This document shows, piece after piece, positions 2,782 to 57,581 of a stretch of 64,000 nt of DNA. A program made the translations under genes and the position numbers. Within the stretch, counting starts at the first letter, position 1, and every line of letters starts with the position of its first letter. Source of the DNA: a phage. Below the pieces are notes generated by a model, which was not told where the DNA came from, made no database searches, and worked only from the letters and a program-made list of their open reading frames with translations. The DNA is taken from sequence record PZ027503.1; one strand, 5' to 3'.

Positions 2782-2870
2782 ACAATATGGAGCAGGAGAA
2801 GTTTATAAAATATTCAACCGAAAAGGTGATAAACTTTTACTAACTTTGACTATTCCAGAAACAATGTGCA

Positions 2871-2899
2871 AGGCGGGGTTAGACCGCCTTTTGTTTTTT
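2871..2899 (+). terminator. intrinsic terminator
   Basis: AGGCGG-ggttaga-CCGCCT hairpin followed by TTTGTTTTTT. Confidence 0.5.
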
Positions 2900-2948
2900 A
2901 AACACAATATCCCACCAGGGGAATATACAGCTAAAAAGGTGAGCAATA

Positions 2949-3524
2949 TTGGCAGGTGAACCAAAAATAATGTGGGGTGAAGGAACACCCTGGAAAACAC
3001 AAGCTGAATTTTATACTTATCTTAGGGGATGTTTTAGAAAAGCATGGATGAGACACCCTAATAAAATTAAGGTTATCAATGCAAGGCGTTTTAAAGTTGA
3101 TCGAGTAGATAAAGACGGCAATGTAATGATAGACAAGAAAACTGGAAAACCAAAACAAGTTTGGAATTGTGAGTGCGAAATATGTGGACATAGGGGAGGA
3201 ATGAAAGACTTCCAAGTGGATCATATTCACGCAGCAAAACAACTTCAATGTTTTGATGATATTCCTCTTTTTGTTTTCCGTTTGATCTATGTGAAAGAAG
3301 AAGATTTGCGAATGGTTTGTAAATTGTGCAACTCTATTCTTGCTTATGCAGACAAGCAAGGCATATCTTTTGAAGAAGCAAAAGCTGAAAAAGAAGCGAT
3401 AGCTTTGTGTAGAGCTAAGAAAGATAAGGCATGGCTGAAGAAGCGTAAAATAGAACCTGAAAGCACAGTAGCAAAACGCCGTAAACAAATAGTCAAAATC
3501 CTATTGCAGGAAATTGAAAGTTAG
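2949..3524 (+). CDS. HNH endonuclease-like protein
   Basis: CECEICGH...DFQVDHIHAAK resembles HNH motif; TTG start after AAGGTG, alternative ATG at 2970. Confidence 0.4.
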   Translation: MAGEPKIMWGEGTPWKTQAEFYTYLRGCFRKAWMRHPNKIKVINARRFKVDRVDKDGNVMIDKKTGKPKQVWNCECEICGHRGGMKDFQVDHIHAAKQLQCFDDIPLFVFRLIYVKEEDLRMVCKLCNSILAYADKQGISFEEAKAEKEAIALCRAKKDKAWLKKRKIEPESTVAKRRKQIVKILLQEIES

Positions 3525-42953: not shown

Positions 42954-43272
42954 AATCCTGAATTCTATCTAACACCCATTGTATACGATGTTTGTTTTTA
43001 TGGCAAATATGTTTTTTATGTTCGAAGGTGTATTCTTCATAACCACCTTCATTAAACGGGAAATTGTAATCTAGTCCTGCACTAATAAACTGTGATTTCA
43101 TCTCCTGTTGTAGACGAGGTAACAGTTCATCAGGGTATGTTCCCTCTACATACTTAATCAAACATATGCACAAACCACTCGTTGTGTGACCTTCTACCTC
43201 ACCAGTAAGCCAAGCTTTGTAAAACTTCATTAGACGTAAGCTACTCAACGGAACATTTCTACTCTCTTGCAT
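42928..43272 (-). CDS. paralogous small-protein family A member
   Basis: FYKAWLTGE...SGLCICL...QF.SAGLDYNFPFN...RIQWVLDRI; GAGAGGAG RBS. Confidence 0.5.
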   Translation of the reverse strand: MQESRNVPLSSLRLMKFYKAWLTGEVEGHTTSGLCICLIKYVEGTYPDELLPRLQQEMKSQFISAGLDYNFPFNEGGYEEYTFEHKKHICHKNKHRIQWVLDRIQDYEGEKNDK

Positions 43273-43793
43273 GATAATCTCCTCTCATTCTTAGCCATCT
43301 TTCATGGCAATCATCAATCACCAACATCATACGATCAATCTTAGGGAATTACAATCGAATTATCATAGGGGATTCCTATCAATTATCCCATATATACCGA
43401 TTATTTTTGACACCCCACTCTTGTATAAAAAGTAACCCAAAATATCTACGGGGAGAGATTATTTCGGGACACCCTGTTTCATGGCAATCATGGCAAGAAT
43501 ATCTAATAGAATCAATATGATATGGCAAAAATCATGGCGCATACGTAAGAAGTGCTTAACGCGAACTTTCGGGCCGTCAGGTCCACGCAGCGACAATTCC
43601 CAAATATCATGCGAATGAGAATAATTATCATTCGTATTCAATGACTTATGCAAGGCTCATGCCAACATAGCGACAAGGTGGGCCACTTGATTATAAATCA
43701 CACAAACACTTATTTATCAATAGGTTGGCAACTTCATCATATGACGGAACAATGTCAACTAATCCCGCTCATAACAGACAGACTATTATTTAT

Positions 43794-43807
43794 ATGAGAA
43801 TGATTAT
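43794..43807. repeat. ATGAGAATGATTAT direct repeat, copy 1
   Basis: Identical 14-mer at 56494-56507; both within near-palindromic AT-rich sites. Confidence 0.4.
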
Positions 43808-44202
43808 TATTTAAACGTTTATTAACATAAAACCAGAATAAATCAAGAATTTTCTGATTTTATTTACGTTTAAGAGAAGATGCTCAACATCCTACCGGAT
43901 CGCCGTTGGCAATCCTGCGGATATTTACGCCCCCATGATTAAGGTTTATCTCTTTTCTTAGTGCTCAACATTCCCGCCCGTGGCGGTAACATTTCGCCCC
44001 CAAAATTATTGACTTTTATTCTATTATGTGCATAGTGTGCAATGTATCGGAATGATGATAATCATCCTCCCATTGCCCCCAATAATTATTGCCATGCTAA
44101 TGATCTCATATTGTAATTATTACAATGATTATTGTTATTGCGCTAATGTTATGATCTTGGTAATTACATATAATGCTAATAATAAGCCAGCGCAATGAGT
44201 GT

Positions 44203-44218
44203 AAGCGTAATTACGCTT
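44203..44218. repeat. perfect 16-bp palindrome AAGCGTAATTACGCTT
   Basis: Self-complementary over 16 bp. Confidence 0.5.
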
Positions 44219-44379
44219 GCAATTATTGCAAGCTACGCAATAACAAGAAATAACCGTCACCGATGGTTATGATTGTTGGGGTGTAGTTGGCTTATTATTA
44301 GCTCGCTATGTGTCCGGCATAGCGTGCTAATGATGATCCTGGGAATGATTCGTTTTGTAATGATTTCATTCAGTCACTA

Positions 44380-44620
44380 TTATGGCAATAGTTATTATTT
44401 TAATGGTTTCGTTTGTTATTGTTCGTTAGTTGGTTGTTTTGTCGTGTTATCGTTATTTTGCTTAGTATTCATCATGGTTTGATTGTTTGTCGTTATCAAT
44501 CATCTTGCTATTATTCCTTTGATTATGATTAGTTTGCTTATTGTTTTATGTTGTTTGTTGGTTAGTTGTTGCGAACTATTATCAACATTATAATTATGCG
44601 CTTATATTGCATAGATAATC
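44380..44620. repeat. strand-skewed GT-rich low-complexity tract
   Basis: About 240 bp composed mostly of T and G on the plus strand with degenerate GTT/ATT repeats. Confidence 0.4.
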
Positions 44621-44852
44621 ATGGGTAGATGATAATGGTTATCATTGCACTAGAAAGGAGGTAGAAGGGTGTTTTTGATGGTTTGTTGTTGGTTGTTGAT
44701 CGATTTTAACCGCTATAAATGGCTCTCTAACAGCCTGTTACCCTGGGAGGTATGGTTATTCGTTTAATGGTTGATTAGCTCGATACCGCGATTTATTCAA
44801 TTTTGTTCTGTGTCGGTTTTTCATAGGCGAAAGCTATCAACATTGTTCGGGC

Positions 44853-44889
44853 AAAAAGAAAGGGCGCTTGGTGCGCCCTTGTTTTGTTG
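44853..44889. terminator. bidirectional terminator
   Basis: GGGCGC-ttggt-GCGCCC hairpin flanked by AAAAAGAAA and TTGTTTTGTTG. Confidence 0.5.
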
Positions 44890-44893
44890 TCAA

Positions 44894-45313
44894 TTATAAC
44901 GCTTCATAGATTGAGTAGATCCGGTTTGCCAGGTCATTACGAAAGCGGAATTTTTCATCACGTTTGATCATCAGATCCTTAAAACCGCATTCTTTCAGTG
45001 CTTCATTAACTTTACTGCGGCATACTTTCATATTGTCCTGCGCGTCACCAATAAACTTGTTACTATGATGCATTGCTTTGATCTCTTCTTCCAGGACCAG
45101 GGCAACTACACGGATCGGATCAAGCTGATACGCGGTAACATCCATGCGGCATTGTAAACGGCTTTTAACGTCTGCCACCGGATATACTGCAACCTCTTCC
45201 CCGTCAACGTTCACAATAACCAATTTACCATCGATTTCGAAGCCTTTAGCGGCGCTACCGTGACAAAAAGCGTTGTCGAAGGAGTAAGCTGGATTATTTG
45301 ATTTAATGTTCAT
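44894..45313 (-). CDS. hypothetical protein
   Basis: ORF in track; first gene of the GC-richer sub-region. Confidence 0.5.
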   Translation of the reverse strand: MNIKSNNPAYSFDNAFCHGSAAKGFEIDGKLVIVNVDGEEVAVYPVADVKSRLQCRMDVTAYQLDPIRVVALVLEEEIKAMHHSNKFIGDAQDNMKVCRSKVNEALKECGFKDLMIKRDEKFRFRNDLANRIYSIYEAL

Positions 45314-45822: not shown

Positions 45823-46206
45823 TTTATTTTCCTCTTTGTGGGCTTGCTGTATTGCTCGCCCTACGTGATAAATAATAATGTAAGCGTGATCCGGTGTCAA
45901 TAGGTAGCATTGTAAAGATTTGATAGTTTATTCCTTTGATGTTTTGTTGTTTGATAGATGTTAGCTATCAATATATGGCGGGGTCGTCCGGTGATTATCT
46001 TCCCCTGCTCCCAGGTGCCGCCCGTTCAATAAGTATAACAAAAAACAGGACAAAAACAAGCCCTGTTTATTTATCTTAAAACCAGTTGCCAACCGTTTCC
46101 AATAGGTCACTGACTACCAGGACAACATTGATCAGCACATATTTAATCAGGAAGGGGATTAGCGCCAGCGCCGCTACTATGATCCCCATTGTCATGATTA
46201 CCTTTC

Positions 46207-48879: not shown

Positions 48880-48959
48880 GATTTTTCTCTCTTCTGTTGT
48901 GAGCGGCACCATTGCCGCCCTACAAGATACATATTATCAGACTACGCGGACTTGTCAAA

Positions 48960-55494: not shown

Positions 55495-55692
55495 TTATTC
55501 TATCCCTGCAATTTGATTAACGCGCTTGCATTTTGTAGCGTGCTGGTCTTCTGTAATGACTCCCATTTCTAACAGGGAATCAATGAAAGATAAAACCGTT
55601 TCATGATCATCCTGGGGATGACTGAACTCAGTAAAACCGTTTACCACGACGCTGATTTGTCCTGCTTTCGCCACAATGTGCAATGTTGCCAT
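55495..55692 (-). CDS. hypothetical protein
   Basis: ORF in track; last gene of the cassette array. Confidence 0.45.
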   Translation of the reverse strand: MATLHIVAKAGQISVVVNGFTEFSHPQDDHETVLSFIDSLLEMGVITEDQHATKCKRVNQIAGIE

Positions 55693-55891
55693 GATTTTAA
55701 CTCCAGGTGATGAATGATGTTTTTTGTTGGTGGACGGTGGATTATGGAGATCCTCACCTTTGCCCGTCCTGCATTGCGCCCCTCCTGTTGTTTATTGTCG
55801 TTGTGCCGCGCCCCCCTCGACAAGATGAATACTACGCCACCAGGTGAGGAACGTCAACCACTTTTTCAATCTTTTTTATTTTCTTTTTTGC

Positions 55892-55920
55892 TTGCTGTAT
55901 ATGAAGGAAACGGCTATCAT
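55892..55920 (+). promoter_or_regulatory. possible sigma70-like promoter
   Basis: TTGCTG, 17-bp spacer, TATCAT upstream of lone plus-strand gene. Confidence 0.3.
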
Positions 55921-55967
55921 CTTTCTACCGCGCCAACCAGGGCGCACAACAAAGAAAGGGCGATACC

Positions 55968-56234
55968 ATGACAAATACTACATTACACCTTATGCACTCA
56001 TTGGGCTGGCAAGGCGGCACGGTGCACCAGGTAGCAAGCGCAACGGGCTTAAAGGTTGAAACAGTTCTCAACCTGGGCGATCATAAGGTGGAAGAGATAG
56101 ATCATTTTGATTCGTTCGCTGATGGTTATTTATGGGCTTGCAGTGGCGGCGGGGAAAGCAAGATACCGCCAGGGGAGCGGGGTAATATGTATTTTTGGTT
56201 AGGTGTCCTATCCTGGCAAGAAGATAAAAAATAA
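55968..56234 (+). CDS. hypothetical protein (lone plus-strand gene inside minus-strand block)
   Basis: 88-aa ORF with AAGGG RBS; GC-richer than surroundings. Confidence 0.45.
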   Translation: MTNTTLHLMHSLGWQGGTVHQVASATGLKVETVLNLGDHKVEEIDHFDSFADGYLWACSGGGESKIPPGERGNMYFWLGVLSWQEDKK

Positions 56235-56262
56235 TCTTGACAAGCCCAGGGATCGGGCTTAT
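56234..56262 (+). promoter_or_regulatory. sigma70-like promoter
   Basis: TTGACA, 17-bp spacer, TATACT; no sizeable ORF downstream. Confidence 0.5.
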
Positions 56263-56269
56263 ACTGTTT

Positions 56270-56480
56270 TACATACAGAAGAGGAAGCGCCACCCCACGG
56301 CGTAAAGGCGGGGCTAACATACCAGGGCGCTGGTTGGAAGGTTGATCGCCGGTAGGCTGGGCGCTATATATTTGTAAAGAAATGTAAAGATAAAATAATC
56401 GCTTGCTTTCCTGGCTGGATCTGTTATTCTTATTACATGGCGAGGGGACACGGGAGCGCGAGACAAACACCACCCCTGCG
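56270..56480 (+). ncRNA. candidate non-coding transcribed region (unclassified)
   Basis: Downstream of consensus promoter; GC-rich with several potential helices; no ORF over 20 codons. Confidence 0.2.
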
Positions 56481-56493
56481 CGTCATTCTCTAG

Positions 56494-56507
56494 ATGAGAA
56501 TGATTAT
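56494..56507. repeat. ATGAGAATGATTAT direct repeat, copy 2
   Basis: Identical to 43794-43807; lies in Fur-box-like near-palindrome GAGAATGATTATCATTC. Confidence 0.4.
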
Positions 56508-56617
56508 CATTCACCTTATTAAATAAGAATCAATCTCATTTATAAACTTAAATGCGAATCATTATCATTTGCATTTCCATATGAGAACTCTTCTCATTCT
56601 CACCTGCATAAATTTTT

Positions 56618-56660
56618 GTAAACTTTAAATTTTGCTTTTGTACTTTCATTTTTGTAAAAG
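56618..56660. repeat. about 40-bp direct repeat, copy 1 (AAACTTTAAATTTTG...TTTTGTAAA)
   Basis: About 35 of 39 positions identical to copy at 56756-56798; period about 138 bp. Confidence 0.5.
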
Positions 56661-56755
56661 CAAAAAAACTTTAAATACTGTGGGCGCGCAAAATTTTTAA
56701 AATTTTCCTTGACTTTTGAGTTTTGTTTTGTATCTAACATTTTAAGATAATTTTC

Positions 56756-56798
56756 CTAAACTTTAAATTTTGGTTTTCAACTTTCACTTTTGTAAATT
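56756..56798. repeat. about 40-bp direct repeat, copy 2
   Basis: See 56618-56660; each copy followed by a shorter related AAAACTTTAAATA motif. Confidence 0.5.
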
Positions 56799-56957
56799 CT
56801 TAAAAAGTTTAAATAATTTGAGGGATTTTTGAGATAATGGATAGTGGGAATTTGATATAACCTTTAATCTTATTAGTAGACCTTCAGGAACCCACTTAGA
56901 TCGAATCCTAGTGATGCAAACTGAAAAAGATAAGGGTTTGTATAGGACAAAATAACA

Positions 56958-56990
56958 GGCTCTCTACGGTGCTGTAGGAGCCTTATTTCT
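56958..56990. terminator. bidirectional terminator-like hairpin
   Basis: GGCTC.CTAC-ggtgct-GTAG.GAGCC followed by TTATTTCT (plus) and TGTTATTTTG (minus). Confidence 0.45.
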
Positions 56991-57038: not shown

Positions 57039-57581
57039 TCACAAATATCGTCTTTGCGGTATTTTGTCTGGGAAAAGTATTTCGATCAGTTTATTATGAT
57101 ATTTACCTAAAAGATTCTGCCCTTTCCAGGTGGCAGGGTTTAGCACCCCTGGTTCATACATCCCCATTCCAATTCCGTAAACCTTATCGTAGGGGCTTGC
57201 TTCAACAAACGTTTTGTATTGGTAAAGGTGTAAGTCTGCATACAAATCTGGATTCTGTACATATTTCAAGCATAAACCTCGCATAACAATACGCTCACGG
57301 TTCTCTTCCCATACGTTGTTATCAAAATCCGACACTGCCCTACCCATACGTTTGTAATAAGCTTGGATCTTCTCATCTTTCCGTATCAAACTATGAGTCA
57401 GAATAGCCTGTGCAGTGTTGTGATCATTAAAAAGCAAAGCTTTACGCCACATCATGTATTGTTCGACACAATTAAATGTCTGATTGTAACCTGGTTCGGT
57501 TTCTGTAAAGGGTGCAATATACCAATTACTAAAAACATCTTTATGTGAAAAGAAGAATACATAATCATCAGTTATTCGCAT
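57039..57581 (-). CDS. NADAR-domain protein (YbiA-like, DUF1768)
   Basis: FFFS...FSNW, VEQYMMWRKALLF, KRMGR, VEASPYDKVYGIGMG, NLLGK follow the YbiA/NADAR pattern. Confidence 0.75.
   Translation of the reverse strand: MRITDDYVFFFSHKDVFSNWYIAPFTETEPGYNQTFNCVEQYMMWRKALLFNDHNTAQAILTHSLIRKDEKIQAYYKRMGRAVSDFDNNVWEENRERIVMRGLCLKYVQNPDLYADLHLYQYKTFVEASPYDKVYGIGMGMYEPGVLNPATWKGQNLLGKYHNKLIEILFPDKIPQRRYL

Follow-up and report, generated by a model that had tools for sequence, protein, structure and literature searches.

A probable pair of promoter-driven structured RNA modules in a non-coding early hub of phAPEC8-like phages

What does a large lytic phage keep in a gene-poor gap within a long block of genes that are all read from one strand? 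The question is raised by positions 55,892 to 56,480 of the 64-kb stretch of phage DNA analysed here (sequence record PZ027503.1; hereafter the window), which belongs to a phAPEC8-like phage (genus Phapecoctavirus, Stephanstirmvirinae) and is 93–98% identical over 55700–56900 to E. coli myoviruses of about 150 kb. Open reading frames (ORFs) of at least 100 amino acids lie on the plus strand up to ~24.6 kb; from 25.9 kb onward, as far as the window reaches, they lie on the minus strand. Within the latter block, the minus-strand genes 55495–55692 and 57039–57581 are separated by a gap of 1.3 kb with one plus-strand ORF inside it, and the map of ORF orientation thus agrees with a first-pass annotation of the sequence, which had pointed out a lone plus-strand gene of 88 amino acids in a GC-richer patch. 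The patch is there as well, with a GC content of 0.48–0.53 over 55925–56450 against ~0.40 on the left flank and 0.25 over 56525–56850, and its plus strand is G-rich (GC skew of +0.17 to +0.43 over 56000–56450). Downstream of the gene, a consensus promoter had been proposed to drive a phage small RNA or a structured leader. Comparison with related phages supports this proposal by conservation, covariation and strand, and refines it to two modules, the second of which fits a structured leader better. Positions 56272–56490 probably hold two conserved, promoter-driven, structured plus-strand RNA modules within a 1.3-kb non-coding early hub, RNA1 being a small RNA that would act in trans and RNA2 a leader that would act in cis.

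Conservation of the non-coding stretch

A sensitive BLAST search with 55880–56520 returned 307 phage records, in which the 88-amino-acid gene was confined to close relatives. The non-coding part, ~56268–56513, was matched at 70–76% identity in the Vequintavirinae genera Seunavirus (PVP-SE1, 4MG), Certrevirus (CR8), Henunavirus and Mydovirus, in the unclassified Pectobacterium phage POP18, and, over 56270–56510, in other Stephanstirmvirinae. Some Klebsiella Mydovirus phages (KB57-like) match the left half only, and rV5-like Vequintavirus phages the right half only. The matched phages share a common layout, that is, a short lone plus-strand ORF in a gap of at least ~1 kb within a minus-strand block, followed by several hundred gene-free bases. 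In an alignment of 13 genomes the order of parts is the promoter P1, RNA1, a direct repeat of TGTAAAGA, the promoter P2, RNA2, one to four palindromic boxes and iterated repeats. Conservation and structure in relatives had been named beforehand as the points on which the small-RNA proposal could fall, and both favour it.

The promoter that the first-pass annotation had placed at 56234–56262 exists as P1 with 11 of 12 hexamer matches, 3 nt to the right of that position. A promoter at the P1 place scores 9–12 of 12, with a spacing of 17–18 nt, in all 39 distinct homologous sequences, those of Aeromonas phages included. Since hexamers and spacing are kept throughout while the spacer sequence changes, P1 is more than a chance match.

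When IMG/VR was scanned with a pattern of the most conserved part of RNA1, an 18-mer described below, ~25 further homologues came up, along with a strongly diverged set in Aeromonas phages (genus Plateaulakevirus). A looser pattern, GGCTN{10,40}AGGTNNATCGCNGGNAG, run over metagenomes and genomes, gave no true RNA1 homologue among the matches listed (nhmmer). A tRNA-based reading of the stretch was rejected: tRNA-Lys, tRNA-Ile and tRNA-Met are annotated over the RNA1/RNA2 homologues at 2074–2769 of Klebsiella phage vB_Kpn_K45PH128C2 (OY978796.1; L005 in our genome set), where ARAGORN finds none. Nor does ARAGORN find a tRNA or transfer-messenger RNA in the window or in genomes L001–L007. Most coding sequences of OY978796.1 are flagged as pseudogenes, and its feature coordinates appear to be shifted relative to the sequence.

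Comparative evidence for a pseudoknotted RNA1

The fold of RNA1 was parsed over 33 distinct sequences, and the tool counts were made on a MAFFT alignment. A small hairpin, H1, carries a C-rich loop that pairs with a G-run downstream of it, and this H-type pseudoknot is followed by a short junction helix, a bulged hairpin (helix C) and the almost invariant 18-mer (Table 1). The downstream bases of the pseudoknot directly precede an invariant CUA, and the pairings seen are CCCC:GGGG, CCAA:UUGG, CCAG:CUGG and CCAU:AUGG. Position 3 of this helix is C:G in 23 sequences and A:U in 10, and position 4 takes all four Watson-Crick types (C:G 23, A:U 7, G:C 1 and U:A 1, with 1 mismatch). Five pairs of helix C show compensatory changes; its sequence, length and loop vary (GNRA in several sequences) and its pairing is kept.

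For the whole structure including the pseudoknot, 90.5% of alignment cells are paired, compared with 81.5% in shuffled alignments. Nine pairs are changed on both sides against 4.5 expected, and the covariation score is 0.221 against 0.073 in shuffles; none of 500 shuffles reached the observed values. When the 3′ partner columns are shifted by 1–3 positions, pairing drops to 25–48%. As the covariation and the compensatory changes keep the pairing, selection on a folded RNA is indicated. In its order of strands (5′a-5′b-3′a-3′b) and in the covariation of each helix, RNA1 conforms, as far as aligned sequences can tell, to the H-type pseudoknot as a structural class, which is not a homology family. 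The G-U pairs fall on the plus strand, and together with the plus-strand terminator of the Aeromonas homologues described below they assign RNA1 to that strand.

The 18-mer varies at four positions only, has no covarying partner and barely changes from Aeromonas to E. coli phages. RNA1 occurs in one copy per genome. By eye, the 18-mer recalls a Shine-Dalgarno sequence, 16S ribosomal RNA, 4.5S RNA and the pistol ribozyme, but these candidates were rejected, because either the matching positions are variable or the Rfam models do not match. With Rfam 15, there was no match within 56200–56900 at E values up to 10, nothing relevant in an E-value search of 54–59 kb, and no gathering-level match across the window; this is the covariance-model search that had been suggested as a check. 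On these comparisons RNA1 matches no described RNA family and is common to three groups of large lytic phages.

The TGTAAAGA repeat between RNA1 and P2 is kept as TTTGTAAAGAnnTGTAAAGA in nearly all homologues from enteric phages; judging from its place, it could form either the RNA1 tail or an element just ahead of P2. The 5′ leader of RNA1, ACAUACAGAAGAGGAAGC (56280–56290), resembles the ribosome-binding region of early genes, ACAACAGAAGAGAGA...AUG (e.g. 48880–48900, minus strand), and has no start codon. On this likeness, RNA1 may derive from within what was once an early transcription unit.

RNA1 as a separate unit in Aeromonas phages

In the Plateaulakevirus genomes, RNA1 consists of a TTGCTT-17-TATAAT promoter, the conserved core, an AU-rich spacer and a GC hairpin followed by a T-run (GCCAGC-ttgttag-GCTGGC), that is, an intrinsic terminator of the plus strand, which comes 35 nt after RNA1 and just before the end of an opposite-strand gene. 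Flanked by two minus-strand genes to which it is antisense, the unit is 1.7 kb away from the module of gene, RNA2 and boxes. Read from sequence, the Aeromonas homologue is a stand-alone RNA gene with its own promoter and its own terminator. In Aeromonas phages 4L372XY, 4L372D and PhAER-4 (L014, L050 and L294), three small hairpins, ~50 nt in all, are inserted precisely into the stretch that links H1 to the 3′ strand of the pseudoknot, which is consistent with this linker being a tolerant loop.

RNA2 and the early leader hairpins

RNA2 is defined by its closing helix, in which the first six bases after the predicted P2 start pair with bases ~40 nt downstream. Across 20 sequences A-U, G-C and G-U pairs alternate in this helix, consistent with the plus strand. 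The GC-rich self-complementary segments that had drawn attention to the region are present within RNA2, GCGAGGGG at 56441–56448 and CCCCTGCGC at 56473–56481; the GC-rich interior also contains a conserved GAGACAAACACC loop region and a conserved GAGACAAWCACC segment. The promoter at the P2 place matches at 9–10 of 12 positions in Vequintavirinae (TTGCAA-17-TATATT, TTGACC-17-GATAAT) and scores 6.5–7 in Phapecoctavirus.

A hidden Markov model of RNA2 found paralogues on the minus strand of the window at 45955–46059 and in genomes L017, L023, L037, L039 and L047, and RNA2-like elements also stand in ordinary 5′ leaders of genes. At 45955–46059, a terminator hairpin overlaps a TTGTTT-17-TATACT promoter, after which come GAACGGGCGGCACC...GAAGATAATCACC...CCCCGCC and, in place of the Fur-like box that follows RNA2, a palindrome TTGATAG-N7-CTATCAA; this paralogue lies just upstream of a minus-strand gene whose ATG is read at 45909. 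The rV5-like Vequintavirus phages, e.g. Escherichia phage slur16 (L007, 2280–2640), have no RNA1; in them the P1-equivalent promoter drives a further RNA2-like unit with a Fur-like box of its own, so that two such units stand in tandem.

A smaller element recurs at the early promoters. The hairpin AGGGCGGCAAUGGUGCCGCUC / AGGGCGGCAATGGTGCCGCTC is found in nine copies on the minus strand between 47151 and 54204, with none expected, and in eight of the nine it begins 6–7 nt after the -10 hexamer of a clear sigma70-type promoter. The sites annotated in phAPEC8 as "promoter determined with PHIRE" are these hairpins after sigma70-type early promoters. From its placement, the hairpin looks like an element shared by the 5′ leaders of all early transcripts, either a stabiliser or a nut/put-like site. 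RNA2 and its paralogue open with sequences akin to that of the hairpin (CAUGGCG... and ACGGGCGGCA...) and close much further downstream; by eye, RNA2 looks like an enlarged version of the early leader hairpin.

Table 1. Features of the hub and the early leader hairpins, in window coordinates; promoters, RNA ends and helices are predicted.
Feature	Position	Strand	Description or basis
P0, candidate sigma70 promoter	55892–55920	+	TTGCTG-17-TATCAT; read from sequence; promoter of the 88-amino-acid gene
Lone gene, 88 amino acids	55968–56234	+	Small five-helix protein; ORF, PHROG match, homologues, structure model
P1, sigma70 promoter	56237–56265	+	TTGACA-17-TATACT, 11/12; predicted start ~56272–56273
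GC-rich hairpin	56242–56260	+	AAGCCC...GGGCTT, inside the P1 spacer; terminator-like site
RNA1	~56272–56375	+	Alignments, pair table; predicted ends
RNA1, hairpin H1	56288–56291 with 56299–56302	+	CGCC...GGCG; 3-bp core (3–4 bp hairpin)
RNA1, pseudoknot	H1 loop 56293–56296 with 56310–56313	+	H-type; C-rich loop, G-run 7 nt downstream, A-rich linker
RNA1, junction	56314–56315 with 56339–56340	+	CU with AG
RNA1, bulged hairpin C	56318–56336	+	
RNA1, almost invariant 18-mer	56338–56355	+	AAGGTTGATCGCCGGTAG; AAGGUnRAUCGCYGGKAG
Direct repeat	56373–56390	+	TGTAAAGA-N2-TGTAAAGA, between RNA1 and P2
P2	56403–56430	+	TTGCTT-16-TATTCT, 7/12; predicted start ~56437
RNA2	~56437–56490	+	Closing helix AUGGCG 56437–56442 / CGUCAU 56481–56486
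Four Fur-box-like palindromes	56491–56598		29-bp spacing; repeat family D1; box 1 = 56496–56514
AT-rich region with direct repeats	56611–56820		25% GC; 72-nt copies 56611–56682 and 56749–56820, 138-bp spacing
Hairpin with T-runs on both sides	56958–56982		Read from sequence; ARNold terminator in the phAPEC8 annotation
Early leader hairpins	47171, 47443, 48921, 50154, 50905, 51339, 52188, 53564, 54204	−	Short 5′ untranslated region and small gene after each

The lone gene and its signals

The 88-residue protein matches phrog_19316 over its full length (E = 1e-56) and has 21 clusters of homologues with identities down to 41% and an invariant N-terminal block. It is predicted to form five helices (predicted local distance difference test score, pLDDT, of 93.7). 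From its homologues and the structure model, the frame is taken to be a real gene. Searches gave no Pfam or NCBIfam family and no significant fold match in the PDB; the idea of a helix-turn-helix regulator was rejected, as neither profile nor fold searches found such a motif.

The gene had been credited with promoters of its own, and the first position of the region pointed out, 55892, is also that of P0. P0 is weak here, yet sigma70-like promoters are kept at its place in relatives (anhysbys, A73 and Av-05, and by eye also PVP-SE1, K45, 4MG and phi1_175008). It is divergent from a minus-strand early promoter, TTGACG-17-TAGTAT (55857–55829). At the other end of the gene, the GC-rich hairpin inside the P1 spacer is likely its terminator, to judge from the sequence; relatives have a GC-rich, mostly hairpin-forming spacer of different sequence at the equivalent place. 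The leader behind the minus-strand promoter 55857–55829 reads GGGGGGCGCGGCACAACGAC... here and is the standard early hairpin in phAPEC8 (L001). That phage and many relatives match the query 55700–56900 only from its position 121 onward, so the leader differs from that of phAPEC8; it looks like a local replacement.

Fur-like boxes and AT-rich repeats

The Fur box of gamma-proteobacteria is a 19-bp sequence, GATAATGATAATCATTATC, also described as the 7-1-7 motif TGATAATnATTATCA. Box 1 agrees with the E. coli consensus in 16 of its 19 bases, and the 64 kb contain no second site of this kind, with 0.04 expected. The consensus of 77 boxes from all loci, AATGAGAATGATT(A/C)TCATT, with a core of TGAGAATnATT(A/C)TCA, departs from the 7-1-7 motif at a single symmetric position, and its right half frequently equals a Fur half-site without mismatch. 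The same motif is found in E. coli, Erwinia, Pectobacterium and Aeromonas phages, following an RNA2-like element in the last, as expected for a conserved host protein. However, G is strongly preferred at position 4 of the left half (60 of 77), so that a different regulator is possible, and the phage boxes come after RNA2 and do not cover a mapped promoter. They are putative sites. If they bind Fur, the array might couple the hub to the iron status of the host.

No DnaA boxes or tandem repeats were found in the hub. In Vequintavirinae a different iterated unit, ...CGATCGAGAACC..., stands at the place of the AT-rich repeats. There, (GAT)CGAGA(A/C)CC recurs in many copies within ~75-bp repeats downstream of the boxes. 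These iteron-like units, seen in Pectobacterium phage phiTE (L046) at ~1880–2130 in RNA1 orientation and in L005 at 2800–3000, are unlike the AAACTTTAAATTTTG-type repeats found in the window. At the far side of the AT-rich region, the hairpin with T-runs plausibly terminates the upstream minus-strand unit and is the first place where plus-strand transcripts that start at P1 and P2 could well end.

Proposed roles of RNA1 and RNA2, and points against them

Our best guess at a mechanism is as follows. Host RNA polymerase would make RNA1 early from P1 as an abundant, stable small RNA acting in trans. The pseudoknot and hairpin could serve as a scaffold that presents the invariant 18-mer and the GGCUA junction, a surface that would bind a partner, protein or RNA, conserved across gamma-proteobacterial hosts. 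The RNA2 transcript would start at P2 or be read through from P1, and RNA2 would act as a cis 5′ leader, by protecting the 5′ end or by modifying the polymerase, on a transcript that continues into the array of Fur-like operators and the AT-rich repeats. A bolder reading, to which we give only tentative credence, is that RNA1 is an undescribed class of pseudoknotted RNA made early by large lytic myoviruses of Enterobacterales and Aeromonas, where it would neutralise or re-program a conserved host component (a protein, an RNA or a small signalling molecule) as a decoy or sponge for takeover or anti-defence.

Several observations weigh against two separate structured modules. Single-sequence folding of 56272–56520 is no better than that of shuffled sequences (z = -1.0), and neither strand surpasses its shuffles, so that comparative data are needed. 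H1 has one compensatory event, C:G to A:U in one lineage, and the covariation of the pseudoknot may reflect few independent events. An alternative helix, CGGCG/CGCCG, between the 3′ strand of H1 and the 18-mer is 98% paired; it lacks compensatory changes and is disrupted in the one lineage in which H1 covaries, and RNA1 may switch between the two. RNA1 has no terminator of its own in the window, where the first plausible one on the plus strand comes ~700 nt downstream, and the product may therefore be one long transcript. The interior of RNA2 gave no single consensus fold, and P2 is weak in the window phage, so RNA2 may come mainly by read-through from P1. The window contains no complement of the 18-mer elsewhere. 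The 5′ and 3′ ends of both RNAs are predictions from sequence, and the trans-acting role of RNA1 is something we infer.

Alternative explanations

The main rival for the hub as a whole, and a serious one even if we think it unlikely, is a transcription-primed replication origin, in which G-rich transcripts from P1 and P2 enter the boxes, the repeats and a 25% GC unwinding region, and DNA synthesis is primed or activated by the RNA, which would make the structured RNAs pieces of the primer or of a leader. The order of parts, from small gene through promoters, G-rich plus strand and boxes to the 25% GC region with direct repeats, is what such an origin would have, and the sequence does place a promoter upstream of an AT-rich region with iterated repeats. 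Relatives have different iterated units at this one place, e.g. CGATCGAGA(A/C)CC at least seven times in phiTE, as expected of phage-specific initiator sites; RNA2, boxes and repeats are kept together from Aeromonas to E. coli phages; and no plus-strand gene follows. For rV5, a skew analysis was uninformative and the origin was not placed (PMC3606486). The model explains RNA1 poorly, because in Aeromonas phages RNA1 is unlinked to the module and has its own terminator, and hence need not run into the repeats. The RNA2-like elements in ordinary gene leaders and the lack of DnaA boxes also speak against it, and the covariation points to selection on a folded RNA, which a simple primer would not need. 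It is less probable still that conservation acts on the DNA only, through promoters and protein-binding sites (operators of host Fur or of a phage regulator), the RNA having no function of its own. The boxes are indeed DNA palindromes near the Fur 7-1-7 motif, the TGTAAAGA repeats lie just upstream of P2, the left half of box 1 doubles as the 3′ arm of a hairpin that follows RNA2, and the 18-mer is invariant without covariation. But the compensatory changes in the pseudoknot and helix C preserve pairing rather than sequence, helix C is free in length and sequence, the G-U pairs are strand-specific, and RNA1 of the Aeromonas phages is an RNA gene from promoter to terminator with no boxes nearby.

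That the stretch is a cis-acting leader or riboswitch controlling a downstream plus-strand gene appears very improbable to us. RNA1 is conserved in a riboswitch-like manner, with invariant junctions and covarying helices, phage A73 has a second plus-strand ORF downstream, and RNA2 paralogues stand in gene leaders. The window, however, has no plus-strand gene between 56234 and the terminator at ~56980, RNA1 of the Aeromonas phages meets its terminator and then the end of an opposite-strand gene, and no Rfam riboswitch matches at E values up to 10. We find a minus-strand protein hardly credible. The stretch had been described as free of ORFs; mechanically found ORFs do cover it, among them one of 115 amino acids on the minus strand (56126–56473), which is annotated in phAPEC8 as the coding sequence phAPEC8_00257, but its frame is not conserved. 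Many relatives have a minus-strand ORF of 60–115 amino acids over the 18-mer, and of the four positions at which the 18-mer varies, three fall in one codon phase, for which the estimated chance is ~1 in 3. Yet those are first codon positions in the frame that is most often open, and across the element variation shows no single codon phase or 3-periodicity. The open frame differs between phages (f0, f1 or f2), L028, L049, A73 and the Aeromonas phages lack it, and close relatives differ within it by indels of 1, 2 and 4 nt; the ORF has no Pfam or PHROG family match and overlaps the 3′ end of the well-supported plus-strand gene. Minus-strand coding by phAPEC8_00257 was rejected on its unconserved frame, its absence in close and distant relatives and its lack of a family.

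Comparison with known systems

Among the literature searched, the only non-coding RNA reported in this phage group is pseudo-ToxI of phiTE, an antitoxin mimic (PMC3475682). Like RNA1, it is encoded between genes of a large lytic myovirus of the rV5-like kind, and it is expressed in infection; phiTE itself also carries RNA1 and RNA2. Pseudo-ToxI differs in being a 36-nt tandem repeat that mimics a host antitoxin, at 106,714–106,772 of phiTE, whereas RNA1 is single-copy and non-repetitive, with no host counterpart identified. RNA1 or RNA2 as pseudo-ToxI was rejected, since the locus is another one and no ToxI-like sequence lies near either.

Compact H-type pseudoknots are known from the T4 gene 32 leader, which belongs to a phage early region, and from the preQ1 and SAM-II riboswitch aptamers. 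RNA1 shares with them a short hairpin loop that pairs downstream across a short A-rich linker. It has no sequence or model similarity to any of them, carries in addition a bulged hairpin and the invariant 18-mer, and does not stand upstream of a regulable gene. RNA2 and the nine early hairpins are comparable to promoter-proximal elements such as the lambda nut sites (boxA/boxB), the HK022 put sites and the 5′ stabiliser hairpin of the ompA leader, in that they lie within a few nt of predicted 5′ ends and recur at many promoters. The early element is one GC-rich hairpin, GGGCGGC-AAUGGU-GCCGCUC, compared with the two stem-loops of put, and we know of no antiterminator protein in these phages. 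Transcription-primed origins, e.g. T4 oriE and oriF, the T7 primary origin and ColE1 RNA II, likewise have promoters that fire into an AT-rich repeat region, here beside a small phage gene; what sets the hub apart is that RNA1 is separable from the repeats in Aeromonas phages. Fur-like boxes are, to our knowledge, not a component of such origins.

Phage-encoded structured small RNAs are already a known kind of molecule, and it is RNA1 and RNA2 that are undescribed in Rfam or the literature searched. That literature gives no description of RNA1, RNA2 or an origin in this phage group, and no RNA-seq or interaction data for it. The rV5, PVP-SE1 and phAPEC8 groups are widely isolated, are used in therapy cocktails and form part of the BASEL collection; their early regions have hardly any annotation beyond hypothetical proteins, and non-coding RNAs are an unstudied side of these phages. 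What had been an unannotated or mis-annotated gap is here resolved into defined parts, namely a pseudoknotted RNA with an invariant 18-mer, a family of early-promoter leaders and a Fur-like array. What makes the locus interesting is how widely it is conserved, its pseudoknot and an invariant segment that calls for explanation. Should RNA1 bind a host factor, it would be an RNA-based tool of takeover or anti-defence in a group that already has pseudo-ToxI; should the boxes bind Fur, the early programme of a lytic phage, or its origin, would be tied to iron. Two database entries call for correction, the coding sequence phAPEC8_00257 and the tRNA features of OY978796.1.

Neighbouring features

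A second region of 1.6 kb without an ORF of at least 70 amino acids lies at 43272–44894. It consists of odd T/G-rich repetitive sequence with Fur-like boxes at ~43611–43634, 43793–43815, 44051–44072 and 44625–44646 and a terminator-like hairpin at its right end.

The minus-strand neighbour of the hub, 57039–57581, encodes a NADAR-domain protein (Pfam PF08719, E = 8e-36), and nicotinamide phosphoribosyltransferase and phosphoribosyl pyrophosphate synthetase are annotated nearby in relatives. The early region thus carries genes of nicotinamide adenine dinucleotide and ADP-ribose metabolism.

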